In this document: one piece after another, positions 3,356 through 23,049 of the stretch
Numbering within the stretch: position 1 is the stretch's first letter
How the letters are laid out: every line of letters starts with the position of its first letter
Assembly (NCBI GenBank): GCA_031380515.1
Contig: JANNGD010000156.1
Coordinates: 24,677-48,676 of the forward strand
DNA from: Ferruginibacter sp.
GTDB taxonomy: Bacteria > Bacteroidota > Bacteroidia > Chitinophagales > Chitinophagaceae
Direction of reading: 5' to 3'
Length of the DNA stretch: 24,000 nucleotides
Position numbers and translations under genes: made by a program
Notes under the pieces: model-generated
What the model was told of the DNA's origin: nothing
Database searches by the model: none
The model's input: only the letters and a program-made list of their open reading frames with translations

Positions 3356-4141
3356 TAATTAGATGCTAAGAATAAAGATTGTACATAATTTTTTTACTTT
3401 TTTTTAAACTAAAGTTGTTTGTTGATTCTTATGTGAAAAGTCTTTTACCTCTAAACTTTAAGGCTTAAAAAACTGGTTTGGCATTTTTAACTATTTCTAA
3501 AAATAACTACAAACTGAGAAATACTAATCATTAATTACTTTTTTTTCAAGTACTGAGGTGTTGAAGATGCTGCATGCCTTCCAGGTTATTTTAAGTAAAA
3601 TCTTACTAACAGAAAAGTTAACTCTTTACCAATCTCTTTATCAAAACAAGGCAAGACGGTTTTGCTATCAAATTTTGCATTGGTACTGAATGAGTCTTTG
3701 TCACAAATGGCAGAGGTGTAATTACATTCTTTATCGCTGTATCAACTTTCCCATAAAGGGCCTTTCTGTTACCTTAATTATTATTGCATCGTATTGCTAC
3801 CGTGTGATTGTATGATGCCTAATTTCAATTGACTTACACAGTTCAAAAAGCATCAGCATTTTTCTTTCTTTGAATAGGTGCCGGTAACTTATGATTTTGG
3901 CTGGTCGCAAGAGCTTACAGCAAATACCAATAGACTTAATAAGTGTATGGCAAAAATGTTTCTGAATGTTTAAATTATTATTTATAGGCAAATACATCTG
4001 TACGAAAGAAGCCTTACACATATTTGTAAGGCGTTAGAAGACTTTAACGATTTTTAGCTGCATCAATATTTACATGCAGTATGAATAAAAGTAGCAAAGA
4101 TGATGTAATAACTACTCAATCTCAGGTTCGTATTCTTTTAC

Positions 4142-4966
4142 TTAAATGATGGTTATTTTTTTAGCATTGGTTATTTCAAACGATTGGTTGTTTTGAACAA
4201 AAGCAACGACCAAATAATTTTCTTTTTCAAAATTTGCCGGCAGGTTAAAAGTAGCAGTGCCCTTACTTTCATTTTTCTGAACAATATCCTGAACGATATT
4301 GATATGGCTTAATGTAGCCCCGCCGTTTTCGCCACGCTTTACCTGTGTAGTGGCATTTTTCAATACCAATTCAAACAGCAGCGTTTCATTTGGCTCCAAA
4401 ACAGCGTAATTGTATTTCACAGACAACTGCTGATTTTTTATCATTGGCATTTCTGTTTCAATAAAAATATTGCTTGTACTTTTATAATTATTGAGTGCAT
4501 TCCACAGGGCTGATTTATTGGAGCCTACAAATTCTGTTTTGCCATTTACAATTGCCTGCGGTGTATATACTGATTCGAGGTTCAAATGTTGAGCATACTG
4601 CCTTTGTCTTTCCGAAAAAGCAGCTCTACTGAAAGGGTCTTTCCAACCTAACCTGTCCCAATAATCAACATGGTAACTCAGTATAATAGTTTTATCATTA
4701 AATTCATTTTGTGCCATTGCAACCAACTTATCTGCTGAAGGGCAGCTTGAACAACCTTCTGAAGTAAATAATTCAACAACAGATGGAGTGCTGTTTTTAG
4801 ACTGTTCAAAAGACGACATCGAAATTTGCAACGGTATTGTAAACTTATTTTTTGGCAACATATCTACAACCTTTACAGTTGAATATATAAGCAAAGCCCC
4901 AAAGAACAATATATAAATAGCGGAAGCAAAATGTACAGTAAATGTATTAGCTTTTGATAAATTCAT
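4142..4966 (-). CDS. DUF1223 family thioredoxin-fold protein with N-terminal membrane anchor or signal
   Basis: Hallmark blocks VELFTSEGCSSCPSADKL, SYHVDYWDRLGWKDPFS, RQRQYA and VYTPQAIVNG. ATG start, TAA stop. 28 nt downstream of the YHS gene. Confidence 0.88.
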   Translation of the reverse strand: MNLSKANTFTVHFASAIYILFFGALLIYSTVKVVDMLPKNKFTIPLQISMSSFEQSKNSTPSVVELFTSEGCSSCPSADKLVAMAQNEFNDKTIILSYHVDYWDRLGWKDPFSRAAFSERQRQYAQHLNLESVYTPQAIVNGKTEFVGSNKSALWNALNNYKSTSNIFIETEMPMIKNQQLSVKYNYAVLEPNETLLFELVLKNATTQVKRGENGGATLSHINIVQDIVQKNESKGTATFNLPANFEKENYLVVAFVQNNQSFEITNAKKITII

Positions 4967-4994: not shown

Positions 4995-5465
4995 TTATTT
5001 AAAAAATTTAGTCCAGGAAACATCTGCCTTTGCTTTCAAATTGGCTTCATTTTTATTCCATTTGTTTAACGTATTGTTTGTCCATGAATGATAAAACAAG
5101 TATAGCTTACCAGCAACTATTTTAAAAGTTTCAGGGTCAATATCTACTTTTTCTTCTGTTGCTCCCATTGCATAAGCACACCAACCGCCGTATTGGGGCT
5201 CGTACTTTTTGAAATCTTTTTTAAACAGTTCTTTGTCTTCTGCTGTGGCAAAATAATAAGTAACACCTTCTGCAGCTACTGCCAATTCTTTCTTTCCTTT
5301 AATGGCTTTGTTTTGTGTAAAGTAAGCAACTGGGTCGTAGCCCTGCAATGCAACTCCTTTTTCAATATTAAACTGAGCGGTACGGGTGGCTTGTTGTGCA
5401 AATGCAGTGCTGTTTAATAAAAGGACTGCGAAAACTGTTGTTAAAATTGTTGCGAACTTTTTCAT
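4995..5465 (-). CDS. Secreted YHS-domain protein (paralog of 16014..16454)
   Basis: Signal peptide (..LLLNSTAFAQQ). Blocks GYDPVAYF, YYFATAEDKELF, PQYGGWCAYAMG and GKLYLFY are shared with the second copy. Confidence 0.85.
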   Translation of the reverse strand: MKKFATILTTVFAVLLLNSTAFAQQATRTAQFNIEKGVALQGYDPVAYFTQNKAIKGKKELAVAAEGVTYYFATAEDKELFKKDFKKYEPQYGGWCAYAMGATEEKVDIDPETFKIVAGKLYLFYHSWTNNTLNKWNKNEANLKAKADVSWTKFFK

Positions 5466-5595: not shown

Positions 5596-5622
5596 AGTCG
5601 GGACAACATGGTTATCCTTACA
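5596..5622 (-). promoter_or_regulatory. Candidate ECF-type promoter, TGTAAGG-N13-CCCGACT (read on minus strand)
   Basis: Minus-strand reading of 5622..5596 is TGTAAGG ataaccatgttgt CCCGACT. Both 7-mers and the spacing are identical to the site at 15961..15987. It lies 131 nt upstream of the YHS ATG in sense orientation. The AAG-16 nt-CGAC geometry resembles ECF -35/-10 promoters. Confidence 0.5.
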
Positions 5623-6104
5623 GAAAGAAAAAAGAATTTGGGTTTTATTTTTAAGTTGCAGAAAGTAGCCGTTTCTTGGAGAATGAGTTGGGAGTAATAC
5701 CAAATTTATTTATTATTTAGTCCAATTATTTTCACGCAAGGCTCGCAAAGGAGCAATGGCGCAAAGAAAGACATTGGATTAACTAACAAGTCCTAAAGGT
5801 ATAAATCCTTCAAAAGCCAATGATGAAAACTGTTGCAGCTATTTCGCTAATGACTCCGCAGATTTTGGAATTGGGGAATACTAACGGATAATAAAAACAA
5901 TGGTTAGTAGCTACAAATTTAATAGAGGTATTTCTTACCTTGGACGGATCGTGCCTTATACTGTTGTAGTATTGTAAGTAAAATTTACGGGTATAAATTT
6001 TTTATTTTTTGTGCTGCGGATAACATGGAGAATATGATTGTATCAAACAGCAATCGGCATTTTAAACAAATAACAGCTTGCCTTTTTCGTTCGCTTCTAA
6101 AAAT

Positions 6105-6365
6105 TTATTGGATCTGTTCTTTCATACGGGCTTTAAAATCATCTGATGCTTTTAAGGCTGGCTTATTATCAAAATCTTTAAAATAAGCTTTTAAAGATTC
6201 ATCAATCATGGGAGACTGCTTTGTAAAATTTTTGCAACACTTACAAAATAAGATATGAAACTTCATCTCAAATTTTTGCTTAAACGTAATTTTCTCTTCT
6301 TCATTTTTCAGAGAAAGCAGCGAAGCCTCCACGCAATTGTTTAATATCCTATTGAAATATCCCAT
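6105..6365 (-). CDS. Small soluble zinc-binding (ZAS-type) anti-sigma factor
   Basis: 86 aa with no TM segment; starts 2 nt after the ECF sigma stop. Full C-x25-H-x3-C-x2-C motif: C11 (NNCVEAS), H37, C41, C44 (FHILFCKCC). Confidence 0.7.
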   Translation of the reverse strand: MGYFNRILNNCVEASLLSLKNEEEKITFKQKFEMKFHILFCKCCKNFTKQSPMIDESLKAYFKDFDNKPALKASDDFKARMKEQIQ

Positions 6366-6367
6366 TT

Positions 6368-6949
6368 TTAATTCATTACACCTTTTTTTTCAAGGCAGGT
6401 ACGCAATATTGTTTTTGATCTGAAAATGATCACCCAATAGTTAGACGGGGTAATATCATGTTCCTTACAAATATTTTCAGTTTTTTCATCTTCAATGTAT
6501 TTTGACACAAAAACAGCTTTCAATTTGGCAGGCATTTTTTCTAGACAAATACCCAAAAACTTTTGAAATTCTTTACTAATAAGGTAACTATCAGCAGCCT
6601 TTGAAAAATAATTTTCTCCTATATCTTCTTTCCATCTGCCATAATTATCCTTGTCAAAAAAAGAATTTTCAAATGAATCTTCCGTTTGATCAAGGTAAGT
6701 TGAAAAACTATCTGTAATTTTTGGCTTACGGTAATAGTCTATAATTTTATTCTTCAAAATAGCCATTAGCCAGGTTTTTTCAGAAGCTGTGCCATTGTAA
6801 TTTTCCCGCCCTTTAAATGCAGATAAGAAAGTTTCCTGCACTACATCTTCAGCTTCCTCTCTTTTTCCTATTTTAAAATATGCAAAGTTGAAAAGATAAT
6901 CGGTATAATTATCAACCCAGCCATCAACATTTAAAGTATGTATTTGCAT
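6368..6949 (-). CDS. ECF-type RNA polymerase sigma-70 family factor
   Basis: Region 2 pattern (EDVVQETFLSAF .. TWLMAILKNKIIDYYRK) and a C-terminal region 4 HTH (ENICKEHDITPSNYWVIIFRSKTILR). 193 aa, typical ECF size. Confidence 0.88.
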   Translation of the reverse strand: MQIHTLNVDGWVDNYTDYLFNFAYFKIGKREEAEDVVQETFLSAFKGRENYNGTASEKTWLMAILKNKIIDYYRKPKITDSFSTYLDQTEDSFENSFFDKDNYGRWKEDIGENYFSKAADSYLISKEFQKFLGICLEKMPAKLKAVFVSKYIEDEKTENICKEHDITPSNYWVIIFRSKTILRTCLEKKGVMN

Positions 6950-7095
6950 AGTATAAAAATACTTTTAGTTTCTTTAAAGCAGAACAAATATATATGAAAA
7001 CATTTGATAGCGGAAAGCCTATTTAAAACTTAACCAAATCAATATAAAATTATGAAAAAGGAATAAAAAATGCCTGTCAATCAAATTCCAAATAA

Positions 7096-8751
7096 TTAAA
7101 AACTTGCATTTAAACTAAGCGTAAGGCCTGCGCTTTGTGGTACGAACCTACAAATACCTCCAACACAAACTAACCCCCCTCGCTGCCTGCCGTAGCTAGC
7201 TTGAGCCCTATAAGCAGCTTTGTTGTATGAAGCGCCAAAGTTATAATAATGTAATCTAGCATCTTTATTGCTATTGCCGTAGTTGTATAAATCTTGCGCA
7301 AATACTGACCATACTGAGCTAAAATTATATTCAATTAAAGAAGCTGCCCAATTTTTAAAGCCGCCTTGTGCCCACTGGTGTTGCAGCTCCCACCTAATTG
7401 ATTTTGATTTTTTTAACTTCAGTGTATTTTCAATTACTGCTGTATTGGCATTTACTTCTCCAGTAGATTCTTCTACATACCTCGCATTGTAATACTGGTT
7501 AAGATAAGTAAATACGGAGGTCCATTTTTTATCCCATTTTTTCCGAATTTCCAGGCTTATATCCCTATAATATTTCTGGCCAAAACCAAATTTAATAGCT
7601 CGGTACTTCCTTTGAAAAGCATCGTACCTTCCTTTAAGACCATGCCATTGAGCATAATTTAAAGAAATATTTGTTCCATATTTTCCACCCAATGGGGTTT
7701 CTTTTTTAAACTTATAAAATAAGTCTACTTGCCCACCAATCTCACCTGCTTTATTACGATCTGGTTCAAAACTAAGATTTGGTTGGGCGGGATACACATA
7801 TATGTTTGTGAGGCTATAATCGAATTGCTTTGTTAATGCAGGCACATAATTTAAAGAACCTTCATTGTACACATTGCCCGATTTATTTCTTTCGGCATAA
7901 AAGCTAAAGTTTTCTAGTCTACGAAGGTTGGTTGTTATTCCAAATCCATTTTTTGTATACCCAAGATTAAGTAAATAAGCATCACCATCAAACTGCAAAG
8001 CTGGCCTAATGGTATTAAATTCTACCAATGCATCTTTTGATTTAAAAGCGTATTCAAAGTCGGCTTTAAACCCATCAACTGAAAAATCGCTTCTCACAGA
8101 TGTGAGTAAGGTATTACTTTTAAGATCGGTAAATACTTTATCGTTTTCATTTCTATTAACAATACTACCCCCAATTCCAAATTTAATTTTTTTTACTTTC
8201 AAAAGATCGGAAAGTTTTGCATCTACATTTAAACCTCCAATTGTGCCATCGCTAAAATTAAAACCCAAGCCACTACGCTGTTTCCCGTACAATGCAGTAA
8301 TTTGTACAGATTCCACTGGAGCATATTTAACCATGCCTCCCACAATGGAATTAACAATGCCCAACTGCCTGTCCTCCCAACTTCGAAACACTAATCCGCT
8401 ACCGAACTGTCCGTAAAAGTGACCAGCAGTAGCATCCAACCCTATTTTATCGTTTCTGTAATTGATATAGTAATTTGCAAGATTTGTTTTTTTCAACAAA
8501 GGCGAATAATTAAGCAAGGCTTTGGGTTCGTAAGATTCAAACTGAACACCTGTTGTAAATTTCTTCAATTTATAATCTAACCTCAAATAATTATTAGAGC
8601 GGATTCTATTTTCAGCATCTATTTGTTCTAATTTTATTTTTGCATCATCAATATATAAAGCAGAATTGGATTCTAAGCTTCCGCTTAGCTGTGCTTTTGA
8701 ATAAATAGAAAAAAGTGTAAAACTTATAATAAGCAATATTTTTTGTTGCAT
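7096..8751 (-). CDS. Outer-membrane beta-barrel protein, DUF6029-like
   Basis: Signal peptide (MQQKILLIISFTLFSIYSKAQ), alternating beta-strand composition rich in G/Y/N, and a C-terminal ..SLNASF with terminal Phe typical of OM barrels. As I recall, DUF6029 proteins sit next to TlpA-like and Omp28-related genes; not verified. Confidence 0.7.
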   Translation of the reverse strand: MQQKILLIISFTLFSIYSKAQLSGSLESNSALYIDDAKIKLEQIDAENRIRSNNYLRLDYKLKKFTTGVQFESYEPKALLNYSPLLKKTNLANYYINYRNDKIGLDATAGHFYGQFGSGLVFRSWEDRQLGIVNSIVGGMVKYAPVESVQITALYGKQRSGLGFNFSDGTIGGLNVDAKLSDLLKVKKIKFGIGGSIVNRNENDKVFTDLKSNTLLTSVRSDFSVDGFKADFEYAFKSKDALVEFNTIRPALQFDGDAYLLNLGYTKNGFGITTNLRRLENFSFYAERNKSGNVYNEGSLNYVPALTKQFDYSLTNIYVYPAQPNLSFEPDRNKAGEIGGQVDLFYKFKKETPLGGKYGTNISLNYAQWHGLKGRYDAFQRKYRAIKFGFGQKYYRDISLEIRKKWDKKWTSVFTYLNQYYNARYVEESTGEVNANTAVIENTLKLKKSKSIRWELQHQWAQGGFKNWAASLIEYNFSSVWSVFAQDLYNYGNSNKDARLHYYNFGASYNKAAYRAQASYGRQRGGLVCVGGICRFVPQSAGLTLSLNASF

Positions 8752-8754
8752 GGT

Positions 8755-9246
8755 CTATTGATTTTCCTTAATAATTTTATAGATTATATTCTCATCGCCT
8801 GCTACATACCCTTGATGCCGGTAGATTATTTCTCCATTTTTAATAATTATACTATAAGGTACATTGGCAATATTTAATTCTCTTTTAAGGTCTTGGTTTT
8901 TATCAAGCAATACATTGAATTCCCAACCTTTTCCTTTTACAAGTGGGTTTACTCTTCCAGCGGTTCTGCTGTCATCTTCTGATATGGCATACAAATCAAA
9001 TTTTGTGCTTTTATTCCAGTCTTCTAAATTGTCATCAGTTGCAGTTAATTCGTTTATGCAAGGAATGCACCAAGTAGCCCAAAATAATAAAACGATAAGC
9101 TTACCTCCTTTTTCATTAAATTTTTCTGTTTGAAAGTTTACCCCATCCAATGTTGCCAGTTTGACATTAGGTATTTTTTGTGCCATAACACCTGATTGAA
9201 AAGCACAGAACAATAAAAGGATACTAAACGATTTGTACATAGCCAT
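8755..9246 (-). CDS. TlpA/ResA-like periplasmic thiol:disulfide oxidoreductase (thioredoxin fold)
   Basis: Signal peptide and active-site block LLFWATWCIPCINEL (CxxC). 163 aa. TAG stop 3 nt before the next ATG. Confidence 0.88.
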   Translation of the reverse strand: MAMYKSFSILLLFCAFQSGVMAQKIPNVKLATLDGVNFQTEKFNEKGGKLIVLLFWATWCIPCINELTATDDNLEDWNKSTKFDLYAISEDDSRTAGRVNPLVKGKGWEFNVLLDKNQDLKRELNIANVPYSIIIKNGEIIYRHQGYVAGDENIIYKIIKENQ

Positions 9247-9263
9247 GACTTATTTTTAATAAT

Positions 9264-9290
9264 AGACTTTGTTTTTTTTCAATCCTTACA
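9264..9290 (-). promoter_or_regulatory. Candidate ECF-type promoter for the TlpA-like operon (TGTAAGG-N13-AAAGTCT, minus strand)
   Basis: Minus-strand reading is TGTAAGG attgaaaaaaaac AAAGTCT, ending 17 nt before the TlpA-like ATG (9246). The -35-like half is one arm of the 9280..9309 palindrome. The -10-like half matches the CCCGACT sites only at G, C and T. Confidence 0.35.
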
Positions 9291-9309
9291 AAAAAATTTG
9301 TAAGGATTG
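9280..9309. promoter_or_regulatory. Perfect 13-bp-arm palindrome in the divergent TlpA-like/Omp28-like promoter region
   Basis: caatccttacaaa-aaaa-tttgtaaggattg: 13/13 complementary arms with a 4-nt loop. It is centred between two diverging start codons (9246 and 9344), so it cannot be a terminator. It carries TGTAAGG on both strands. Confidence 0.8.
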
Positions 9310-9325
9310 AAAATTTGCACCGTCC
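9299..9325 (+). promoter_or_regulatory. Candidate ECF-type promoter for the Omp28-related gene (TGTAAGG-N13-ACCGTCC)
   Basis: Plus-strand TGTAAGG attgaaaatttgc ACCGTCC, ending 18 nt before the ATG at 9344. CGTC is the classical ECF -10 core. Spacing is the same as at the other three sites. Confidence 0.4.
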
Positions 9326-9343
9326 ATAAATAAAAACTCAATT

Positions 9344-10384
9344 ATGAAAAAATTTATGATCTTGGCCTTTCTTATTGGAAGTGCCATCCTTTTTAATTCC
9401 TGCACAAAGACAGAATCGGAGTTTACTGATACTCCACAAGAGGCTATTACTGTAAAAGCTAGTACCTTAAGTATCATTTCTGGTAATACAGTAACTTTTT
9501 TGGTACAGTCATCTGTAAACAACCACAATGTAACTGCTAGTAGTAAAATTTATGTAAATGGTTCTTTAATCACTGGCAATAGTTATACTTTTAGTGTGGA
9601 AGGTAATTTTGCTGTATATGCTACATATGGCCAATTAACATCTGCCGTAATTACTGTAAATGTTGCGCCATTACCTGCCACAACAATGTATAAACACAAT
9701 GTGTTGGTAGAAGAATATTCTGGCACATGGTGTGGAAACTGCCCAAGAATATTATATGGTGTAGATTTATTGGAACAACAAACAACAAAGGCAATAATAG
9801 TAAGTACACATTTATTTGGTAGTGACCCATTTATTTCAACAGATGGAAATAGTTTGGCTGCACAACAGGGAGTAGGAGGGGTACCAAATGGTTTTATAAA
9901 TAGAACCTTAAGTTGGATTGCGCCTCAGTATCAAAATGTAAACCAAGTAATCAATACAATCCAGGCTTCTGCTTCAGTTGGCTTGGCAATAAATTCAGCA
10001 GTAAGTGGCAACAACTTATCGGTAAATATAAAAGCTAATTATTCCCAACCTTTATCGGGTTCTGCAAAACTTACTGTGTATTTGGTAGAAGATAAATTGT
10101 ACCATACGCAAAGTAATTATTCATCTAATCTTTATGGAGGACTTTCCAGTATTCCAAACTTTGAATACAATGGCGTTCTTCGAAAAATAATTAGCCCAAT
10201 AAGTGGTGATAATATTTCAATATCAGGAAACAACAATAACAAAGATTATTCATTGGTATTGCCTAGTAATATATCTAATATTTCAAATGCAAGAATAGTT
10301 GCTTTTGTTACCAATGCTGCTGGAATGGTAGTGAATGCATTAGAAGCAAAAGTGGGAGTTGCAAAAACTTTCGAAACAATATAA
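9344..10384 (+). CDS. Omp28-related outer-membrane lipoprotein with thioredoxin-like CxxC motif
   Basis: Lipoprotein signal (..AILFNSC), an N-terminal Ig-like segment, then the family block VLVEEYSGTWCGNCPR. This is the only convincing plus-strand gene in the window. Confidence 0.8.
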   Translation: MKKFMILAFLIGSAILFNSCTKTESEFTDTPQEAITVKASTLSIISGNTVTFLVQSSVNNHNVTASSKIYVNGSLITGNSYTFSVEGNFAVYATYGQLTSAVITVNVAPLPATTMYKHNVLVEEYSGTWCGNCPRILYGVDLLEQQTTKAIIVSTHLFGSDPFISTDGNSLAAQQGVGGVPNGFINRTLSWIAPQYQNVNQVINTIQASASVGLAINSAVSGNNLSVNIKANYSQPLSGSAKLTVYLVEDKLYHTQSNYSSNLYGGLSSIPNFEYNGVLRKIISPISGDNISISGNNNNKDYSLVLPSNISNISNARIVAFVTNAAGMVVNALEAKVGVAKTFETI

Positions 10385-10537
10385 TTGTTTAATATCCTTT
10401 ATTTAGGGCTTGCTCAAAAACTATAAATTGCTACCTGTGTTTTATTTCGGTTAATTGTTTTGCTAACTGATGCGCTGGTTTTTTATTAAATAGTTCAAAA
10501 AACTTGCAGACATTTTTTCGATTGTCGTTTTTGCCTC

Positions 10538-10668
10538 ATGCCGGCGGGCATCTCTAAGCCTCACCCCCAGCCCCTCTCCACAGGAGAGGGTAGCGATGCA
10601 ACGCTGCTGTTTTTTCTTCTTTTGAAAAAATATGCTAACGCATTTTTTCAATCCCGATTTCATCGGGA
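10538..10668. repeat. GC-rich cluster of short hairpins (REP-like intergenic element)
   Basis: atgcc-ggcg-ggcat (10538..10551), ccctctcc-aca-ggagaggg (10572..10590) and tcccgat-ttc-atcggga (10652..10668), in a locally GC-rich island within an AT-rich convergent intergenic region. I recall similar strings as dispersed intergenic repeats in Bacteroidota genomes (unverified). Confidence 0.5.
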
Positions 10669-10799
10669 CCGAACAAAAAAAGGCAGCTTATGCAGTAGCT
10701 GGTAGATTTTTGCGAAGATTTTATCGAATAAAGTTTCTAATGATTAGTACCTAAATTCCAAATATTGTTGCTTAAGTTTTTAAGCAAGTCCTATTTAAA

Positions 10800-10838
10800 C
10801 TGCTCATTTTTTCAAAGTTGAAAAATTGAGCAGTTTTT
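10800..10838 (+). terminator. Rho-independent terminator-like hairpin in the convergent intergenic region
   Basis: ctgctcatttttt / aaaaattgagcag arms (13 bp, 1 mismatch), 8-nt loop, followed by TTTTT on the plus strand. It lies between the Omp28-related gene (+) and the ATP-grasp gene (-). On the minus strand only TTT follows it. Confidence 0.5.
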
Positions 10839-10901
10839 AGTTTAATTAAATTGGTGAAGTGAATTGCCAATTTGAAATACTTTGAAAGAATAATTGAACC
10901 A

Positions 10902-11963
10902 TTAATAAATATTTGTATTTTGTCTGTATTGCTTTCCTAATCTAATTGTAGACCAAAAAGTATGGAAAGATATATATAGAGAACCTCTTTTTTTATTTTC
11001 AATAGCGGCCTCATACATCATCTTAAAATGTTTAACAATTTGCATTTGCCCTTTAAAAAAAGAATACCCAGGCTCGTAAATATGAGCAGGTTCTGATGCA
11101 GCTCCGTTCAATTCAAGTATTACATAATCTTTACCTTTTTTTAAACCCTCTATACTCATACAACGCAAATCGTATCGTCCATAAAAAAAACCATTTATTC
11201 TTTTACTAATGTAATCTATTGTATCTGTCAATTGTTCATCAATAATATGATTGTAATTTATAAAGGTAGCGCCTAAAACATGGTTGCCGTAAGGAACCAA
11301 CACTTGCTGCTCTCCATTGGAAAGCACTTTTGTAAAATCAATTTTATTCTGCATTTTTAGTTTATCATATTGCAAGAAACACCTGTCATTGTCCAATATC
11401 AGTTTTTCAACAGTTGATGAGCCATCACCAGTAATGGTGAGTAATTTTTTAAGCGTTACAGAAGTCACCATACCTTTTGTTTGCAAAGGATGCCTGTAAT
11501 AAAAAATACTAATTTCTATTGGATAATCAATATAAGTCTGGATTAGAAAACTGATACGCATATCCTTTCTATAAAGCTCCAATTCTGCTATATCATTAAT
11601 TTTTTTTACTCCCCACCCTCTTTCGCCTCTATCGGGCTTAGCTATCACGGGAAACGAAATGCCGGCTTCTTGCATTCGATGATTTATAGAAGATCCTTCT
11701 TCATTGTAATCTACAATAATAGTTGTCGGGTAATACTCTTTTGGTATCAGTTGAAATATCTTCCATTTACTCGAAAAAAACATTCCGCCATTTTCTATTG
11801 TAGGATTGGTAACAGAAAAGAAAAAGAATGATCTGGCTTTTATTGAAAGGTATAGAAAATAAAAACCAGCTGGGAAATATATCAACCACACAGGCCAGTA
11901 CTCCCAACTAAATGTTTTTATATAAAGCCTTCTTATGTTAAAATATATTTTATTAATGTTCAT
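10902..11963 (-). CDS. Membrane-anchored ATP-grasp fold carboxylate-amine ligase, specificity unknown
   Basis: N-terminal hydrophobic helices (WPVWLIYFPAGFYFLYLSI). ATP-grasp blocks FPVIAKPDRGERGWGVKKI, FLIQTYIDYPIEISIFYY and YVILELNGAASEPAHIY. Starts 3 nt after the upstream membrane-protein stop. Confidence 0.7.
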   Translation of the reverse strand: MNINKIYFNIRRLYIKTFSWEYWPVWLIYFPAGFYFLYLSIKARSFFFFSVTNPTIENGGMFFSSKWKIFQLIPKEYYPTTIIVDYNEEGSSINHRMQEAGISFPVIAKPDRGERGWGVKKINDIAELELYRKDMRISFLIQTYIDYPIEISIFYYRHPLQTKGMVTSVTLKKLLTITGDGSSTVEKLILDNDRCFLQYDKLKMQNKIDFTKVLSNGEQQVLVPYGNHVLGATFINYNHIIDEQLTDTIDYISKRINGFFYGRYDLRCMSIEGLKKGKDYVILELNGAASEPAHIYEPGYSFFKGQMQIVKHFKMMYEAAIENKKRGSLYISFHTFWSTIRLGKQYRQNTNIY

Positions 11964-11966
11964 TAT

Positions 11967-12551
11967 TTATTTAATAACCCAAACACTTTTTTCTAGTATT
12001 ATAGATAACACAGATGCAATACCTATTAAAACAGCTATACATTTATGCAATAAAGTACTTCCAACTTTCTTTACAGATATGTATATTAATAAAGCACAAA
12101 ATACAAATAATAATATTTGCTGTAACCATGTTTTTTCTAGCAGATAAACATTGAATAGTATAGATATTAAAACGGCAATGCCTACAATAAGAAATATTAT
12201 TGGATAGTGGCTGTGGTAATATATTTTCATATCTGAGCCTTTATCGCTTTCATTTGTAGGCAACAGCATTTTTACTGCTATAAAAAGAGTAATAGGATAA
12301 AGCAATATAAACAATAGTGCTGGTAGTGTCCACACAGTTTTATCTTTTAACTGGTAGGTTATAAACCAATCCTGCACATGCAGAAAGAGTATAAACAGTA
12401 CCCATAAAGTATGTGGCCAGTAAAATTTTATTTCTTTATAATGGTATAGTAAATCAGAGAACGAAGAAAGTATTTGTGTAATACCCAATCCTAAAATAAT
12501 GGAAACTAATATGGACACATATTCGAAGGCGCTTATCTGGTTACTAAACAT
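11967..12551 (-). CDS. Polytopic membrane protein (about 5-6 TM), unknown function
   Basis: 194 aa, almost entirely hydrophobic helices. The ATG overlaps the CoaB stop by 8 nt (ATGTTTAG), so translational coupling is likely. Confidence 0.7.
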   Translation of the reverse strand: MFSNQISAFEYVSILVSIILGLGITQILSSFSDLLYHYKEIKFYWPHTLWVLFILFLHVQDWFITYQLKDKTVWTLPALLFILLYPITLFIAVKMLLPTNESDKGSDMKIYYHSHYPIIFLIVGIAVLISILFNVYLLEKTWLQQILLFVFCALLIYISVKKVGSTLLHKCIAVLIGIASVLSIILEKSVWVIK

Positions 12552-13260
12552 AATTCAAACGCTTTTTATTTGTTGCTATAGGCAAAGTAGGCTGCAACTT
12601 AGTTATGAGATGATGTACAATATCAACAGCTACCAGTGACTTTAATTTCAGTTCATAATCAGTAATACCAAGTTGGCTATCAATTAATTTTATCCTGTTC
12701 GTATCAAAGCCAAATCCACTTCCATTGCTGTCTTGTATATTTAATACTACAAAATCAAATTTTTTGCGTTGCATTTTACTAATAGCATTGGGCAACCCAT
12801 TTTCGGTTTCCAAAGCAAATCCTACAAATATTTGTCCCGATTTTTTTGTTTTAGACAATTCAAAAGCAATATCAGGATTGGGCACAAGGCTGATATGTAT
12901 TTCGCCTTCCTGTTTTTTTATTTTTTGATTGGCAACAACCGCACATTTATAATCGGCCACTGCTGCTGAAAAAATTATTACGTCAGCATCAGTTGCCATA
13001 TATTGGGCTACTTCCAGCATTTCATCTGCAGTAACCACATTGGTAATTTGCTCAGCAACCAGCGTTGTTTTAATGTTTACAGGGCCAGAAACAACATGCA
13101 CATCTGCACCAAGGCTATGCAAATATTCGGCAATGGCATAGCCCATTTTTCCGGTGGAATGATTGGAAATAAAACGCACAGGGTCTATTGCCTCACGGGT
13201 AGGTCCTGCAGTAATGATAACCCTTTTTGATTTTAACTCGGTGTTGGAAAATTGTTCCAT
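12544..13260 (-). CDS. coaB: Stand-alone phosphopantothenate-cysteine ligase domain protein (CoaB; no CoaC half)
   Basis: KRVIITAGPTREAIDPVRFISNHSTGKMGYAIAE, SAAVADYK, QKIKKQ and VGFALET are collinear with the C-terminal (CoaB) half of E. coli Dfp/CoaBC as I recall it. The ORF starts only ~12 aa before the ITAGPT block. Stop is TAG followed by TAA. Confidence 0.88.
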   Translation of the reverse strand: MEQFSNTELKSKRVIITAGPTREAIDPVRFISNHSTGKMGYAIAEYLHSLGADVHVVSGPVNIKTTLVAEQITNVVTADEMLEVAQYMATDADVIIFSAAVADYKCAVVANQKIKKQEGEIHISLVPNPDIAFELSKTKKSGQIFVGFALETENGLPNAISKMQRKKFDFVVLNIQDSNGSGFGFDTNRIKLIDSQLGITDYELKLKSLVAVDIVHHLITKLQPTLPIATNKKRLNYV

Positions 13261-13268
13261 TAATTTGC

Positions 13269-13508
13269 TTATTGATATTGATTGAATAATTTAATTTTAA
13301 ATTTCTCCTGTACTATATCAAAGTATTTAGCTTTGTTAGTTGTCTTCTCTTTTACAGACAGATACATTGATATAAAAAATGTTGCCAATAAAGTAGATAC
13401 AATCTTTATTAAAATTGAGGTAGTCAACCTTTTTTTCAAGAAAGCATTCCACTTGGCAAACACAGCAAAAAAGCTACTTTTCGCAATCGGTGCTACAAAT
13501 ACTTTCAC
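13269..13508 (-). CDS. Possible small single-TM protein (79 aa), hypothetical
   Basis: ATG-initiated ORF filling the NRDE-CoaB gap almost exactly (13 nt and 8 nt spacers). One hydrophobic helix (ILIKIVSTLLATFFISMYL). The sequence is AT-rich and a plus-strand ORF overlaps it, so coding status is uncertain. Confidence 0.35.
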   Translation of the reverse strand: MKVFVAPIAKSSFFAVFAKWNAFLKKRLTTSILIKIVSTLLATFFISMYLSVKEKTTNKAKYFDIVQEKFKIKLFNQYQ

Positions 13509-13521
13509 AACATTTTTTTGT

Positions 13522-14286
13522 TTAATTATTTTGCATCGGGTTTATTTTTAAATGACCAGGTATTAAACAATCATTCAATTTGCTTTGTAAATCAATTTTT
13601 GTACTGCTGTAGCTGTAATTTGAAAAATCATAATAGCTCATGGCTGCATTGTGATGGCTTATTTCAATGAATGAAAAACTGAGTGTCTTTGTTATTTCGT
13701 TTCTGTTTATCATAAATCCATTTTCATTATCAACATGTGATTTAAAAAAATTGAGTAATGATAGTTTTGAAACGGGAGGGTTCATTGCCATCCAATTTTG
13801 AAACAAATCTTCCCTTTTTGTCTTTGCATCAGCATCATATAAAGTAGATGATGACCATATATGTGGCAATGTTTCATCTAACCGTATTCTGTGTCGTTCC
13901 ATGCCATCCCACACCAGTTGAAACAAATTATTATCACTCCATACTATTAAGGTAAATGGTTCAATGTCTTCCAAATCAATCAAATTCCATTCTACCACCG
14001 GCATTTCCGAGACGAGCAATTCCGACACAATAATGCCCCTGCTTTTTCTGTAATAATTTTTACGCTGGTGATTTTCAAAACCACCGTTCAATAAAACGAT
14101 AACGTTGCCGGTATTGTTTACACCAACCCAAGTTCCACCCGCCATTGGGTCTTTGGGAGATAAATAGGATATTCCATTTAATTCACTTATTGCTGGCTTT
14201 ACAGCTCTTGGTCTTTTAGGACTTTCATCCCTCAATGAACTAATAAAAACGCCATCATTACTGGGTATAAAAATTACGGTACACAT
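13522..14286 (-). CDS. NRDE / TANGO2 family protein (N-terminal Cys, Ntn-hydrolase-like)
   Basis: Starts MCTVIFIP, followed by SSLRDESPKRP (NRDE-motif position) and GGTWVGV. These are collinear with human TANGO2 MCIIFFKF..AANRDEFYSRP..GGTWLGI as I recall it. Confidence 0.85.
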   Translation of the reverse strand: MCTVIFIPSNDGVFISSLRDESPKRPRAVKPAISELNGISYLSPKDPMAGGTWVGVNNTGNVIVLLNGGFENHQRKNYYRKSRGIIVSELLVSEMPVVEWNLIDLEDIEPFTLIVWSDNNLFQLVWDGMERHRIRLDETLPHIWSSSTLYDADAKTKREDLFQNWMAMNPPVSKLSLLNFFKSHVDNENGFMINRNEITKTLSFSFIEISHHNAAMSYYDFSNYSYSSTKIDLQSKLNDCLIPGHLKINPMQNN

Positions 14287-14306
14287 AATTTATTTTTTAA
14301 AAATCA

Positions 14307-14930
14307 TTAAAACCCAATCCTGGTTCCTATCAAAAAAGAAAATGCTTTTGGTCTGCTATCCTGCACCTTAATATTGGCAGACCAGTAAGATGCATCTACA
14401 TATATTGTTTGCAATATTTTTGATGTAGTACTATAGGCAAGTCTTGAACCTGCTCTTCCAAATATTCCCTGCATTCTGGTTACCTGCTGGTTAATGATAC
14501 CATTTACATTATCTACCATAAGCCGTGGCTCTCCAATATTTGCATAGCCTGCGCCAAAATATGGTGATACAAATAATCTTCTGGAGTTGCTTAAGGCGAT
14601 ATTTCTGCCAATATTTATGCCTGCTAAAAAAACAGAACTGCTGGTTCTTTGAAAAAGATAAGCAGAACTTGCATCTTTTACCTGCTGGCTGTACTTTACA
14701 GCATTAAAGTCCAAAACAAATTGTGCAAAATAATGCTTGCTGAACTTATATTCGATGCCTGAATTTAATGCCAGCGAATTTTTATAAGCATTTGCGAACG
14801 AAGACACCGGGTTGAGCAACCCCACCGCAGTAGTAAAAAATATTTTTGATGTATCCTGTGCTTTTACAGATGTACAAAAACAAATAAAGAGCAGTGGCAA
14901 TAATAACCTGTAATCGATTAATTTTTTCAT
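14307..14930 (-). CDS. Small outer-membrane beta-barrel (porin-family) protein
   Basis: Signal peptide (..FCTSVKAQD), alternating beta-strand pattern and a C-terminal ..IGTRIGF with terminal Phe. Confidence 0.75.
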   Translation of the reverse strand: MKKLIDYRLLLPLLFICFCTSVKAQDTSKIFFTTAVGLLNPVSSFANAYKNSLALNSGIEYKFSKHYFAQFVLDFNAVKYSQQVKDASSAYLFQRTSSSVFLAGINIGRNIALSNSRRLFVSPYFGAGYANIGEPRLMVDNVNGIINQQVTRMQGIFGRAGSRLAYSTTSKILQTIYVDASYWSANIKVQDSRPKAFSFLIGTRIGF

Positions 14931-14931
14931 T

Positions 14932-15432
14932 TTAAGATTTAGCTAATGAAGCCTGATATTTGATGGTGGAATAAGCCATGCCAAAATCGTTATCAACAAT
15001 ATCGAGTTTCATTTCAATAATGGCTACTTTTATTAAGGCAAGGTGATGTATCGTATGTTCGGTATTATAAACCATTTCCCTGTAATAGGTAGTAGTTACG
15101 TTTGTTAATTCAATGGAGCCTTCTATCTGCTCCACAGTAAGTTTTAATTGCCTATCGGGAACTATTATAAGCCCATCCATTTGCTGCAGTACAACCTCTG
15201 CAAACACACGGTCGGTTTCTAGCAGCAGGTTTCTTTTTCGATTTACATAATCTACCTCTCCGGTGCTATATCCATCAATGGCGCATTGCAACAGTTCAAT
15301 CACATGCCTTGTGTGCCCTCCAATGCTTGAATTGCCAAGGTGTGCTACTTTTTGATTGTATTGCTCATCGGTAAGGCGCTGTAAAAGTTTACTAAGTGAT
15401 TGTAATTGCTGAGATAATTGCAGAAATATCAT
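14932..15432 (-). CDS. DinB-fold (DinB_2-like) metal-binding protein
   Basis: 166 aa helical protein with a His-triad-type pattern (GGHTRHVIELL .. NTEHTIHHLALIK). Its stop lies 1 nt before the next start. Confidence 0.75.
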   Translation of the reverse strand: MIFLQLSQQLQSLSKLLQRLTDEQYNQKVAHLGNSSIGGHTRHVIELLQCAIDGYSTGEVDYVNRKRNLLLETDRVFAEVVLQQMDGLIIVPDRQLKLTVEQIEGSIELTNVTTTYYREMVYNTEHTIHHLALIKVAIIEMKLDIVDNDFGMAYSTIKYQASLAKS

Positions 15433-15453
15433 GTACTTTTTTTTACCTTTTGT

Positions 15454-15879
15454 TTAATTAAGTGAGTGCGTAATTTTGTTTTTTCTAACCCTGTTTAGAA
15501 ATAGAATTGCTTGATGCTTATACAGTAGCATTATTACTGCACAACAAATCCAAACAACAATTGCCAGCATAAATAATTGCCCACCATCGCCCTTAGATTC
15601 TATGCCAATAACGGTAAAATGGGAAAGTATAGCGCCAGACATTAGGCCAAACCCCAAAAAGGCACCAATAAATACGGTGGATGGAATGAGGAGTAGAACA
15701 CTGGCAATTAATTCTATAACCCCTGTTCCAATTCTACCCCAGGGTTCCACCCCCAATTTGGTGAATAGTTCTACGGATTCTGGATGGCCAGTAAATTTAA
15801 AATACAGTGTTTGTAGAAGAATGATGGCAGCTACTATTCTAAGTACCAAACCGACGATAGTTTTTAAGTTGAATGACAT
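15454..15879 (-). CDS. DoxX family membrane protein
   Basis: 141 aa, 4 TM. Typical LRIVAAIILLQTLYFKFTGHPESVELFTKLGVEPWGRIGTGVIELIASVLLLIP pattern. Confidence 0.85.
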   Translation of the reverse strand: MSFNLKTIVGLVLRIVAAIILLQTLYFKFTGHPESVELFTKLGVEPWGRIGTGVIELIASVLLLIPSTVFIGAFLGFGLMSGAILSHFTVIGIESKGDGGQLFMLAIVVWICCAVIMLLYKHQAILFLNRVRKNKITHSLN

Positions 15880-15960
15880 GATGTTTTAGTATTATTGATT
15901 TAATTAAAAAAAACTGTTTGCACCTGCTTAGTTTTTCTATTACTTAGCAGATGTAGTAAC

Positions 15961-15987
15961 AGTCGGGAAAAAAACAAAACCCTTACA
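15961..15987 (-). promoter_or_regulatory. Candidate ECF-type promoter, TGTAAGG-N13-CCCGACT (minus strand), heading the DoxX..ATP-grasp array
   Basis: Minus-strand reading of 15987..15961 is TGTAAGG gttttgttttttt CCCGACT. Both 7-mers and the spacing are identical to 5596..5622 while the spacer is unrelated. It lies 82 nt upstream of the DoxX ATG. Confidence 0.5.
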
Positions 15988-16013: not shown

Positions 16014-16454
16014 TCATTTATTAAGTTTCGGCCAGTAACCATCTGCTGCTTTAATACGGCTGACGGTATCTTTTATCCAAAGCTGTTTTACATCCAAGTT
16101 ATAATTCAAATAAAGTTTACCACCTGCAATTGTCCAGGCTTTTGGGTCGGTGGGAGACAAGTGGTTTTCGCTGGCGCCATAAGCACAAAAACCTCCATAC
16201 TGTGGTACATATTTTTCTGGGGCTGTTTTAAAGCTGTCTAAATTATTTTGACTTACAAATTTCCATTTGCTCCCACTCCACTCAGTAGTGTATTTGTCAG
16301 TTCCTTCTACAGCATTTTGCTGATTGAAATATGCTACCGGGTCGTAGCCTTTAATAGCCACTCCATTTTTACCGCTGTACTTTATTGACTGTGCAAACAA
16401 GCCTGCGGAAAGTAGTACTGCAAAGCATGTAATAACTGCTGTTTTCATCTTCAT
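16014..16454 (-). CDS. Secreted YHS-domain protein (paralog of 4995..5465)
   Basis: Signal peptide. Blocks GYDPVAYF, PQYGGFCAYGAS and GKLYLNY. TGA stop. Confidence 0.85.
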   Translation of the reverse strand: MKMKTAVITCFAVLLSAGLFAQSIKYSGKNGVAIKGYDPVAYFNQQNAVEGTDKYTTEWSGSKWKFVSQNNLDSFKTAPEKYVPQYGGFCAYGASENHLSPTDPKAWTIAGGKLYLNYNLDVKQLWIKDTVSRIKAADGYWPKLNK

Positions 16455-16553: not shown

Positions 16554-17408
16554 TTATTTATCGGGCCTCACTATTTTTTTAAGTTCAGAAGGATTTTGAG
16601 ATGTGCAGTTTTTGAAGAACTTACTGAAATGCGCCACTTCATCAAAGCCCAGTATATCTGCTATTTCTTTTACTGATTTATCGGTGTAATAGAATAGCCG
16701 TTTGGCTTCTGCAACAATTCTTTCCTGTATTACCAGTGTGGGCGTTTTTTTGCTGTATAAAGAAAATATATTGGAAATTGTTTTGGGGGATTTATTGAGC
16801 AGCCCTGCATAAAACTGAACCTGGTGCTCTTTTCTGTAATGGATTTCTACCAGTAAATTGAATTGCCTAATGAGATTGAATTTTTCGCTATAAGCAGCCT
16901 CAGTACCCAGGTATTGTTTTTTGGCAAGCCGGGTAATTTGTATAATGAGGCGTACCAATAACATGCGGAGCATTTCAGCTTTTATATCTTCATCAGACAA
17001 AAATTCTTCAACAAAAACATCCAGCAAACGGTTCATTACTTCAATATGTTCTTCTTGCAATTTTATAAACAAAGTGGGTGAAGGCCCATAAAATACAAAA
17101 CCTACACAGCCTACTTCTACATCATGATTAACAATGCAGTAAAACTCCCGGTTAAACTGCCACAAAACTATATCTGCAGGATTTTGAAACCTGAAAGACT
17201 GGCTCACCATAACAGGTAATACATGGTTTGCACCAAAAACATATTCCACTTCATCAATAGTTACCACTTGTTGAGCGCCCCTGTTCCATGCAATGGTATA
17301 CAGCTTGCTGTCAATATTTGGTTCACTAAAATATCGCTGAAGATTTTCTTCTTCCGTTTTTAAAATAAGTTGCCCAGCATCTTGTTTATTCTTAAATATG
17401 TATTCCAT
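16554..17408 (-). CDS. AraC family transcriptional regulator
   Basis: C-terminal double HTH (..YAGLLNKSPKTISNIFS .. VKEIADILGFDEVAHFSKFFKNCTSQNPSE). The N-terminal sensor domain has YTIAWNRG and a C-x9-C pair (CIVNHDVEVGC). Confidence 0.9.
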   Translation of the reverse strand: MEYIFKNKQDAGQLILKTEEENLQRYFSEPNIDSKLYTIAWNRGAQQVVTIDEVEYVFGANHVLPVMVSQSFRFQNPADIVLWQFNREFYCIVNHDVEVGCVGFVFYGPSPTLFIKLQEEHIEVMNRLLDVFVEEFLSDEDIKAEMLRMLLVRLIIQITRLAKKQYLGTEAAYSEKFNLIRQFNLLVEIHYRKEHQVQFYAGLLNKSPKTISNIFSLYSKKTPTLVIQERIVAEAKRLFYYTDKSVKEIADILGFDEVAHFSKFFKNCTSQNPSELKKIVRPDK

Positions 17409-17548
17409 TTTTGTATCCTTATTTATCCTTCACCAATTACAGATAAAGTGGTCTTAACGATTTATAAGAATAAATAAAAGATAAATTGCTCATGGTTTTA
17501 ACAACCCATAAACAAATAAAAAATGGTATTAAAAGCAGGAAGAAAATG

Positions 17549-18430
17549 TTAAGCCGATCCTCTACCAAAACCAACCGTTTCTCGGTACAACTGCGGCGAT
17601 ACATCTGAATTTACTTTAAAAAAACGGCTGAAATAATATTCATCTTCATAACCTAACTCATAAGCAATTTCTTTCACCGTTTTGTCTGTCAGATACAATT
17701 CTCTTTTTGCTTCAATGATGATGCGTTCGTTTATGAGACTACTAAGTGTTTTATTAAAATGTGTTTTTGTGATTTTTGCCAAAGCCTTTGTAGAAATATT
17801 TAATGTGCTGGCATAGTCACTTGCAGAATGTTTTGTTTTAAAATCTTTTTCAATAGCATCTTTAAGGTTTTGCAAAATGAAGGGCTGCTTTACGTTTTTT
17901 TGTGCCAATATTAATTCCGGCTGCTGTTCTGATTTTAACCTAGATGCGGATATTAAAAATATTTTGAGGTAAGATACCAGCAGCTCGTACTGTGCCAATG
18001 CTGGGTTTTGCATTTCAATTTTCATCTGCTCCAGCAGAATATTTAATGTGGCAGACGAAGCATCGTCAATGCTGATGAACGGTGGTTGATAAATATTATT
18101 AAACAATACGCCATTGCAAGCCACTTCTGCTTGGTGCTTGTGTATGCAAAAAAAATCGGGATGAAATTGCAATGCTAATCCTTCCATATTTTCATCGGGC
18201 AAAAACATAAAGGGCTGATAAGGCGAAAATGCAAACAACGTATTTTGTATAAAATCATATTCTAAAAAATCTGCTTTTACTTTTCCCTTTCCTTCTTTTA
18301 TCTAAATAAGAGAGTAATAATTGTTGCGTTGTAAATGGTCAAAATAAGCATTGTTATCAAATGAGAATAGTTTGAAAGCAAGGTTGCCATTTTGAGGATT
18401 GATGAGTGTGAAAGTATTTTGCTGCTTCAT
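17549..18430 (-). pseudogene. AraC family regulator interrupted by one in-frame TAG (codon 43) at a conserved Trp position
   Basis: The ATG at 18430 opens MKQQNTFTLINPQNGNLAFKLFSFDNNAYFDHLQRNNYYSLI-TAG-IKEGKGKVKADFLEYDFIQNTLFAFSPYQ.., in frame with ORF 17549..18238. TAG is at 18302..18304. The tandem paralog has YTIAWNRG where this gene has YSLI*IKEG, which points to TGG>TAG. The C-terminal AraC HTH is intact. Confidence 0.8.
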
Positions 18431-18441
18431 TCTAAATTATA

Positions 18442-18855: not shown

Positions 18856-18927
18856 ACTGTGTTTTTTTTAGTTTTACTAAAGCAGCAAAGCCAGACGATT
18901 AGCCTGGCTATACTGAAAGTTTTTATT

Positions 18928-20188: not shown

Positions 20189-20226
20189 ATATTTCTCTTT
20201 GAAAATTATTAAAGGAGATTTTTATA

Positions 20227-20589: not shown

Positions 20590-20729
20590 GTCAAAATAAT
20601 CTAATTGTAAATAAAGAAAAATAAAGTTGTCTTTAAACGAGATTGTGTATCGTCAGTTTAATACAGCAGCATTATTCATTCCTGTTTATTTACTTATACA
20701 TGGATAAAGTAAAATCCTTACAATTTCCC

Positions 20730-22823: not shown

Positions 22824-22827
22824 ATAA

Positions 22828-23034: not shown

Positions 23035-23049
23035 TAGAGTCCATCATAT

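Follow-up and report, generated by a model that had tools for sequence, protein, structure and literature searches.

Two operons in a 24-kb stretch of DNA from Ferruginibacter sp. (contig JANNGD010000156.1; this whole stretch is hereafter the window) are preceded by the same two heptamers, TGTAAGG and CCCGACT, 13 nucleotides (nt) apart, and the gene of a sigma factor of the extracytoplasmic function (ECF) type lies between the two copies. Which protein reads these sites, and which genes would it control? The preliminary description of this DNA took them for ECF promoters tied to the adjacent pair of sigma factor and zinc-binding anti-sigma (ZAS) factor, a reading that has gained support from an approximately 150-fold enrichment of the motif near homologues of the sigma factor, from footprints in related genomes, and from the match to the promoter consensus of Neisseria meningitidis. 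On these grounds, TGTAAGG(W)TT-N10-CCG(A/T)CTAA is very probably what the ECF sigma factor with its gene at 6368..6949 on the minus strand recognizes as its cognate promoter; this factor would be a relative, from a soil-type bacterium of the Bacteroidota (Chitinophagaceae-like), of sigmaE/MseR from N. meningitidis and RpoE2/HrsE from Haemophilus influenzae, in the group ECF13, now ECF293. ECF promoters and regulons of a group with a published consensus are not new in themselves; the novelty lies in the host phylum and in the set of targets, since no member of this group from the Bacteroidota has been studied, as far as the literature searched shows.

Sites of the motif in the window and around homologous sigma factors

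Both 27-mers first reported are exact, the minus strand reading TGTAAGG-ataaccatgttgt-CCCGACT at 5622..5596 and TGTAAGG-gttttgttttttt-CCCGACT at 15987..15961. Their distances to the start codons had also been given correctly, as 130 nt separate the first site from the ATG at 5465 of a YHS–DUF1223 gene pair, and 81 nt the second one from the ATG at 15879 of an operon headed by a DoxX gene. A third site with the full pattern had been overlooked, namely TGTAAGG-aacatgatattac-CCCGTCT at 6469..6443 of the minus strand, inside the open reading frame (ORF) of the sigma factor itself. The spacers of the sites that share these heptamers are unrelated. With up to two mismatches, the full bipartite pattern occurs three times in the window against 0.09 expected, and TGTAAGG alone occurs eight times against 2.86, a value that proves the earlier estimate of about three copies per window correct; each count was compared with 100 shuffles of the window, none of which reached three or eight, respectively.

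The sites were also scored with a position matrix built from other genomes only, the window's own sites being excluded. Its maxima in 30 shuffles ranged from 4.1 to 16.6 bits (listing threshold of 6 bits), and therefore four sites, with 21.5–26.1 bits, are individually significant, while two others, with 12.4 and 13.1 bits, are not. The four strong sites are the predicted promoters of the YHS–DUF1223 pair (5596..5622, minus strand; 26.1 bits; predicted transcription start site ~5586), the predicted internal promoter in the sigma ORF (6443..6469, minus strand; 25.7 bits; predicted start ~6434), and the predicted promoters of the DoxX operon (15961..15987, minus strand; 22.2 bits; predicted start ~15951) and of a gene for an Omp28-like protein (9299..9325, plus strand; 21.5 bits; predicted start ~9334), the last of which would leave a leader of only ~10 nt. 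The two weak sites, both within the shuffle range, are a candidate promoter of the TlpA–DUF6029 genes (9264..9290, minus strand; 12.4 bits), with a perfect −35 box and a degenerate −10 box (AAAGTCT), and the marginal site TGTAAGG-N13-CATGTAT (20696..20722, minus strand; 13.1 bits), whose standing is uncertain. Relaxing the search to one mismatch in the −35 box and spacers of 12–14 nt brought up no further sites in the window, and a scan of the window for promoters of the sigma-70 type—a type that is wrong for Bacteroidota—returned 61 matches compared with 56 in shuffles.

The promoter recognized by sigmaE of N. meningitidis (NMB2144, with the anti-sigma factor MseR, NMB2145) is composed of the −35 box GTAAGGTT (GTMAGBWTT), a spacer of 12–13 nt, and the −10 box CGTCTAA (CGTCTAAH), and a conserved A six nucleotides downstream of the latter corresponds to the mapped transcription start of gonococcal msrA/msrB (PMC2893595). 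In this register, all the strong sites of the window hold a 12-nt spacer: GTAAGGATA-12-CGACTATT for the YHS–DUF1223 pair, GTAAGGAAC-12-CGTCTAAC for the internal site, and GTAAGGGTT-12-CGACTGTT and GTAAGGATT-12-CGTCCATA for the other two. These four sites fit the Neisseria consensus at seven to nine of the nine −35 positions and at five to eight of the eight −10 positions.

The surroundings of homologous sigma factors were covered by 87 further loci (88 with the window), of which 80 come from one genome per species, and the other seven are contigs that encode close homologues (L081 to L087 among them); some 20 kb of each genome was covered. Over the 1.52 Mb of these loci, the strict motif, defined as TGTAAGG-N13-NNCG[AT]C, occurs 73 times, compared with a mean of 0.5 in dinucleotide shuffles and a single match in the reversed sequence. 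The matches recur at three places relative to the sigma gene: inside it (+444 to +498), just past the anti-sigma gene (+840 to +1450), and, on either strand, a short way upstream. When all 7-mers past the sigma and anti-sigma genes are counted without bias, excluding the window, TGTAAGG ranks first, with 17 loci against 2.1 expected, and the consensus of 48 non-internal sites, ttTGTAAGG(A/T)tt...CG(A/t)CtAa, reaches beyond the pattern used in the search.

Both the orientation and the position of these sites are biased. Of the 70 non-internal sites that reach 17 bits or more, 59 are followed within 150 nt by the start of an ORF in the same orientation, which holds for 36% of random positions, and only 26 fall within a long ORF, as do 90% of random positions. 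The first genes downstream (52 ORFs) include DoxX (five), YHS (five), pyridine-nucleotide disulphide oxidoreductases (Pyr_redox_2, four), AhpC/Redoxin (four), DUF1223 (three), and DUF2282 (two), as well as MsrAB (SelR four, PMSR three), which is a set of genes for the repair of thiol and methionine oxidation. Footprints at orthologous genes agree with this picture: upstream of the YHS gene, the two boxes are the sole invariant blocks among five loci with a mean identity of 53%, and upstream of DoxX both are kept in three of the four loci compared (the window, L081, and L085), where the flanks have diverged, and they are found in L086 as well.

The sigma factor, its anti-sigma factor and the site inside the sigma gene

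An ECF sigma factor with a ZAS anti-sigma factor had been placed at 6105..6949, and both proteins can be recognized there. The sigma factor (6368..6949, minus strand; 193 residues) holds the two domains Sigma70_r2 and r4_2 of Pfam. The ORF of the anti-sigma factor (6105..6365, minus strand; 86 residues) begins 2 nt past the sigma stop codon and encodes a small soluble protein of the ZAS type, without a hydrophobic segment, bearing the motif C11...H37ILFC41KCC44 (H37-x3-C41-x2-C44). Across 32 homologues of the anti-sigma factor, C11 and C41 never vary, and conservation at H37 and C44 is 90% or higher. Its match to the NCBIfam anti-sigma family model NF052368 (E = 1.9e-9) reaches 37.2 bits, with a curated cut-off of 50, and a sequence search of the PDB retrieved no chain for the anti-sigma profile at E <= 1 and only generic ECF sigma factors for the sigma factor. 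Three cysteines in domain 4 of the sigma factor (C135, C161, and C185) are invariant across 24 homologues of 45–84% identity, and C161 is kept even in loci without an internal promoter; the sigma factor itself may be sensitive to the redox state or to a metal.

Regarding the transcription of the sigma gene, no cognate site was found within 320 nt upstream of it, the best score being 6.1 bits. A pattern search located the sequence TATATTTG (6985..6992, minus strand) 35 nt before the sigma ATG, which corresponds to the housekeeping −7 consensus of the Bacteroidota, TAnnTTTG (PMC9723704), recurs in the same region in L082 and L084, and is likely a sigma-independent promoter of the sigma gene. Due to this housekeeping-type box and the absence of a cognate site upstream, the sigma factor and its anti-sigma factor are probably produced constitutively. 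Positive feedback, on the other hand, exists in some relatives, because in L085 and L086 the sigma gene is the last but one of the DoxX operon, at the head of which lies a cognate promoter.

The internal site covers codons C161 to S169, in region 4.2 of the sigma factor, 77 nt before the anti-sigma ATG at 6365. Considering the 68 loci whose sigma factor is at least 33% identical, and sites of at least 17 bits, the site lies inside the sigma ORF in 36, directly upstream of it instead in six, at neither place in 26, and at both in none. Internal sites are found in Bacteroidota and in loci recorded as Balneolales, Chitinispirillaceae, Latescibacteria, Deltaproteobacteria, and Ferrovaceae, and they mostly precede the anti-sigma start by 71–102 nt (with outliers from 5 to 340 nt). 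In the six loci of the upstream type (L007, L011, L012, L013, L014, and L020), the site precedes the sigma gene by 66–130 nt, often next to a divergent partner. As these six are all recorded as Sphingobacteriaceae (Mucilaginibacter and Pedobacter), this architecture may have arisen in a single evolutionary event.

As region 4.2 forms a conserved helix-turn-helix (Cys-Lys-Glu ... Pro-Ser-Asn), the internal site could also be a mere consequence of the protein sequence, without promoter activity. In close relatives, C161 and N170 are indeed invariant and K162 is nearly so, and one orthologue, in L083, keeps the anti-sigma gene without the internal −35 box. In this locus (10481-10506), where a 79% identical sigma factor is found in a different gene neighbourhood, TGCATCC replaces TGTAAGG, changing Lys162 to Ile and Glu163 to Gln, and CCCGTCTAAT and the anti-sigma ORF—uncalled in the source annotation—are retained. 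The presence of this ORF ruled out that the anti-sigma factor and the internal −35 box had been lost together in L083, and the replacement heptamer recurs nowhere else in that locus.

One argument against a protein constraint is the choice among synonymous codons, which is strongly biased to the motif. Lys162 is encoded by AAG in 33 of 37 cases, when 11 would be expected from local codon usage (z = 8.4), and codon 168 has the form NCG in 40 of 52 (11.2 expected, z = 10.1), while Cys161 is TGT in 46 of 64 (32.6 expected, z = 3.6) and Ser169 is TCN in 40 of 46 (28.8 expected, z = 3.4), all in a test that ignores shared ancestry. Where the protein does vary, the nucleotides stay: residue 163 can be Glu, Val, or Asp, yet its codon always starts with G, and residues 168–169 vary (Pro/Ser/Ala/Thr, then Ser/Thr) while CG[AT]C is maintained. 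In addition, all six loci with a cognate site upstream lack the internal site and have a residue other than Lys at position 162, and the same arrangement has been shown by experiment for sigH–rshA of Corynebacterium glutamicum (PMC3489674). A site imposed by the protein alone is thus unlikely, and the internal site, although it overlaps conserved residues, appears to be held at the DNA level, synonymous positions included.

A broader proposition can be built on this site: that the promoter of the sigma factor is written into the codons of the very helix-turn-helix that recognizes it (the −35 box in Cys161-Lys162-Glu163 and the −10 box in residues 168–170), as an old, cross-phylum trait of ECF13/293 providing anti-sigma-only feedback and alternating with upstream autoregulation, Lys162 being held by the promoter rather than by the function of the protein. 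The case for this proposition as a whole is evenly balanced. No description of an internal feedback promoter for ECF13/293 was found in the literature searched.

Several observations weigh against the assignment of the motif to the local sigma factor as a cognate promoter of this group. The best NCBIfam match of the sigma factor, TIGR02943, scores 138.7 bits and falls below the cut-off of 162.2, and the identity to the RpoE2-type sigma factor of Haemophilus haemolyticus is low (35% by tblastn, E = 2e-26). The TlpA-side site is not significant in this genome, the codon bias comes from a test blind to common descent, and the internal site is dispensable, as in L083 the anti-sigma gene persists without the internal −35 box. 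Finally, since paralogous pairs with the same motif exist, a sigma factor encoded outside the window could read the sites, the local pair then being merely one of its targets. Such a second pair is found in L084 (2740-3571), 7 kb from the first, with a YHS gene ahead and an internal match of its own of 26.9 bits at 3211; two pairs of the family thus lie within 8 kb in this locus, both with the internal motif, and the fact that no cognate site directly precedes the sigma gene of the window points in the same direction. Set against this are the tight clustering of the sites around members of the family in 88 loci from many phyla and the DoxX-operon promoter of L085 and L086, which is placed to drive an operon ending in this sigma factor. 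Control by an outside paralogue is consequently regarded as quite improbable.

Divergent sites, predicted regulon and neighbouring genes

The palindrome caatCCTTACAaaaaaatTTGTAAGGattg, described at 9280..9309 between the TlpA-like and Omp28-like genes, is real and carries TGTAAGG on each strand. The partners assigned to it were verified 13 nt on in either direction, namely ACCGTCC (9319..9325, plus strand), 18 nt before the ATG at 9344, and AAAGTCT (9270..9264, minus strand), 17 nt before the ATG at 9246. Of the two divergent promoters proposed here, the one on the Omp28 side stands by its score, whereas the −10 box on the TlpA side is not significant alone, though orthologues have a proper CGTCT box. 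On the TlpA side, L081 and L084 have TGTAATG-N13-TACGTCT or TCCGTCT, with a better −10 box than that of the window (19.6 bits in L084), and on the Omp28 side they have TGTAAGG-N13-ACCGTAT where the site of the window lies.

A dimeric transcription factor might bind the boxes instead—for example, a nearby regulator of the AraC type—which would turn this palindrome and a second one at 4011..4032 into true operators, and the bipartite sites into half-sites with chance partners. Both palindromes are made of the same 7-mer, and two AraC-family genes lie at 16554..18238. Against this reading, the gap between the back-to-back −35 boxes is 8 nt in the window, 22–24 nt in L081 and L084, 19 nt in L011, and 15 nt in L014. 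Each box is, moreover, paired at a constant offset of 13 nt with a CG(A/T)C partner of its own, facing outward to a gene; the sites are mostly single and directional, and the motif equals a sigma promoter with a mapped start (PMC2893595). These features make a dimeric factor very improbable. Because the gap between the boxes differs so much between the window and its orthologues (L081 and L084), the palindrome is best understood as an incidental result of two −35 boxes that diverge, with arms made longer by their extended consensus (TTGTAAGGATT), and not as a conserved hairpin or operator. As for chance, or the remnants of a short dispersed repeat, the roughly three copies of TGTAAGG expected per window would speak for it, but the observed counts were reached in no shuffle, the spacers have nothing in common, and the boxes are kept at orthologous positions in other genomes, which leaves this explanation hardly any credit.

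Orphan copies of TGTAAGG had been noticed at 4012..4031 and 20716..20722, and they are present at both places. The former belong to the hairpin GCCTTACA-N6-TGTAAGGC (4011..4032, minus strand), found in a scan for terminator-like structures 110 nt past the DUF1223 stop codon, with a stem of eight pairs, four of them G-C, and the T-rich tail TTCTTTCG; terminator-like matches number 10 in the window overall and 8.1 in shuffles. This hairpin is probably a terminator rather than a promoter. A relic divergent promoter was considered for the palindrome at 4012..4031 and ruled out, as neither strand has a −10 box or a sense gene downstream, and both score below 6 bits. The orphan copies are alike in another respect: 13 nt after the minus-strand copy at 4018 stands GATGTAT, and after the copy at 20722 stands CATGTAT, the common ATGTAT being unexplained.

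If the motif is the cognate promoter of the local sigma factor, a simple cycle can be proposed. In unstressed cells, the 86-residue zinc-binding anti-sigma factor would hold the sigma factor, which would be released when the cysteines C11, C41, and C44 become oxidized or modified. The RNA polymerase carrying this sigma factor would then start ~6 nt past the −10 box at the four strong sites, those of the YHS–DUF1223 pair, the DoxX operon, the Omp28-like gene, and the sigma ORF. The last of these would yield an mRNA for the anti-sigma factor alone, a negative feedback that would restore its excess after the stress. The weak fifth site may drive TlpA–DUF6029, reading on into the sigma and anti-sigma genes, and the sigma gene would otherwise rely on its housekeeping-type TAnnTTTG box. 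What the DNA itself shows is the sequences with their statistics and conservation, and which genes are present; dependence on the sigma factor, the starts of transcription, an oxidative signal, and how far the operons extend are inferred from it. A single redox-responsive ECF regulon had been proposed for this region; the link between promoter and sigma factor is supported, whereas the redox response is still a deduction that draws on the ZAS motif and on the kinds of genes present. The promoter model supplied here comprises a consensus, a spacing, and predicted start sites.

The predicted regulon is one of envelope thiol-redox proteins: a YHS (seleno)protein-type protein, DUF1223, TlpA, an Omp28-like protein with a CxxC motif, DoxX, and DinB_2; several domains of unknown function thereby gain a testable context in oxidative or thiol stress. 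The first operon encodes a secreted protein of the YHS domain (seleno)protein type (4995..5465, minus strand; NCBIfam NF041384, 128.5 bits) and a CxxC-containing DUF1223 protein (4142..4966, minus strand; Pfam DUF1223, E = 2.3e-54). On either side of the palindrome lie the genes of a TlpA-like thiol:disulphide oxidoreductase (8755..9246, minus strand; Pfam AhpC-TSA/Redoxin), followed by that of a DUF6029 protein, likely of the outer membrane (7096..8751, minus strand; Pfam DUF6029), and of an Omp28-family lipoprotein (9344..10384, plus strand; Pfam Omp28, E = 1.6e-32), in whose translation the motif WCGNCP can be read.

The DoxX operon (10902..15879, minus strand) consists of seven genes, which encode DoxX, DinB_2, a 207-residue protein with a signal peptide, TANGO2, and, after a gap of 261 nt across which a single transcript is assumed, a CoaB-like homologue of a cysteine ligase with the C-terminal domain of DFP, then a membrane protein, and finally an ATP-grasp protein (Pfam and NCBIfam). 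The 207-residue protein matched no family in Pfam or NCBIfam, and its counterpart in L081 gave a weak Autotransporter match. Core genes of this operon are linked to the sigma factor in L081, L082, L085, and L086, and no paper was found that combines these families. It might be speculated that the DoxX–DinB_2–TANGO2–CoaB-like–ATP-grasp operon makes or recycles an undescribed small thiol.

A second secreted YHS paralogue (16014-16454, minus strand) lies directly upstream of the DoxX promoter, after an AraC gene, and has no ECF promoter. Both paralogues hold a Cys in the motif GG(W/F)CAY, with the ECF promoter only at the first. Genes for MsrAB are absent from the window, and SelR/PMSR lie directly behind a site in the relatives L087 and L062. 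Further along, the region 17549-23523 is occupied by more genes of the redox type, which encode two regulators of the AraC family, DUF1348, a CxxC-containing protein that resembles CMD/AhpD, another that resembles chlorite dismutase, a nitrilase, a flavin oxidoreductase of the Old-Yellow-Enzyme type, and DUF417; these families also adjoin sigma homologues in L082, L083, and L084, and the copies in the window have no significant motif site. The ~480 nt (5623-6104) that separate the anti-sigma stop codon from the YHS promoter contain neither conserved sequence nor a convincing ORF and match nothing in Rfam, and relatives have long gaps here as well; Rfam gave no match anywhere else in the window. 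At its other end, an ORF of 832 residues with a TTG start (857-3355, minus strand) belongs to no Pfam family at E <= 0.01.

Comparison with known systems

Since the motif equals the Neisseria promoter and the anti-sigma factor holds a zinc motif of the RsrA type, this system probably represents a new, phylogenetically remote member of a known family of sigma factors and promoters rather than a new kind of element. SigmaE/MseR shares with it the promoter consensus, a small soluble anti-sigma factor in which the Cys/His/Cys/Cys spacing equals that of RsrA (PMC2893595), and a small oxidative-repair regulon. However, the Neisseria sigma gene is part of an operon headed by a cognate promoter, and msrAB is under its control, whereas that of the window has no cognate site directly upstream, belongs to a different phylum, and has YHS, DUF1223, DoxX–DinB_2–TANGO2, Omp28-like and, weakly, TlpA proteins as predicted targets. 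The likeness was drawn through the published consensus. A homologue search for the Neisseria locus with a Haemophilus-type sigma factor gave Pasteurellaceae only among the matches listed (at least 120), and a literature text search for TGTAAGG together with sigma gave unrelated primer sequences only.

RpoE2/HrsE of H. influenzae, described as "ECF group 13", controls msrAB and responds to hypochlorite, and the rpoE2 promoter region is barely RpoE2-dependent (PMC7907618). ECF13 has since been merged into ECF293 (PMC7826278), in which meningococcal RpoE is also listed (PMC8999054). Among the loci analysed, that of H. haemolyticus (L062) encodes, in this order, the sigma factor, a 57-residue zf-HC2 anti-sigma factor, dmt, msrAB, and a ccdA-like protein (DsbD_TM family), which matches the published order rpoE2-hrsE-dmt-msrAB. 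Its site TGTAAGA-N13-GCCGTCTAAC (22.1 bits), 41 nt before msrAB, corresponds to the RpoE2-dependent msrAB promoter fragment of H. influenzae (PMC7907618). The Haemophilus system therefore resembles that of the window in its homologous sigma factor, its zf-HC2 mini anti-sigma factor, the same motif before msrAB, and a promoter of its own that is barely self-dependent, as predicted for the sigma factor of the window. It differs in the −35 variant TGTAAGA, in a regulon of msrAB and dmt, and in the weakness of its internal site (11.8 bits); the response to hypochlorite, shown there by experiment, is for the system of the window a prediction.

SigR/RsrA from Streptomyces coelicolor has the ZAS residues C11, H37, C41, and C44 at identical positions and follows the same logic of thiol-oxidative stress, but it belongs to an unrelated sigma group with an unrelated promoter (GGGAAT-N16-GTTG, PMC3489674).

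A direct precedent for the internal site, shown by experiment, is offered by SigH/RshA (ECF12) of C. glutamicum, where a promoter that depends on SigH and lies in the coding region of sigH has its starts 62–66 nt before rshA, giving a monocistronic mRNA for the ZAS anti-sigma factor alone, which has been proposed to shut off the response quickly, and where sigH is transcribed from other promoters upstream (PMC3489674). The conserved internal promoter predicted here suggests that many members of ECF13/293 are wired for an anti-sigma-only negative feedback, as opposed to textbook positive autoregulation. Such wiring would affect the response of the circuit and the reuse of these sigma factors as orthogonal switches, a paper on which makes no mention of ECF13. 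Unlike the predicted system, SigH/RshA belongs to another ECF group and recognizes the motif GGAA...GTT, and its internal promoter has been reported for one actinobacterial species, compared with the 36 of 68 loci, spread across several phyla, that hold an internal site here.

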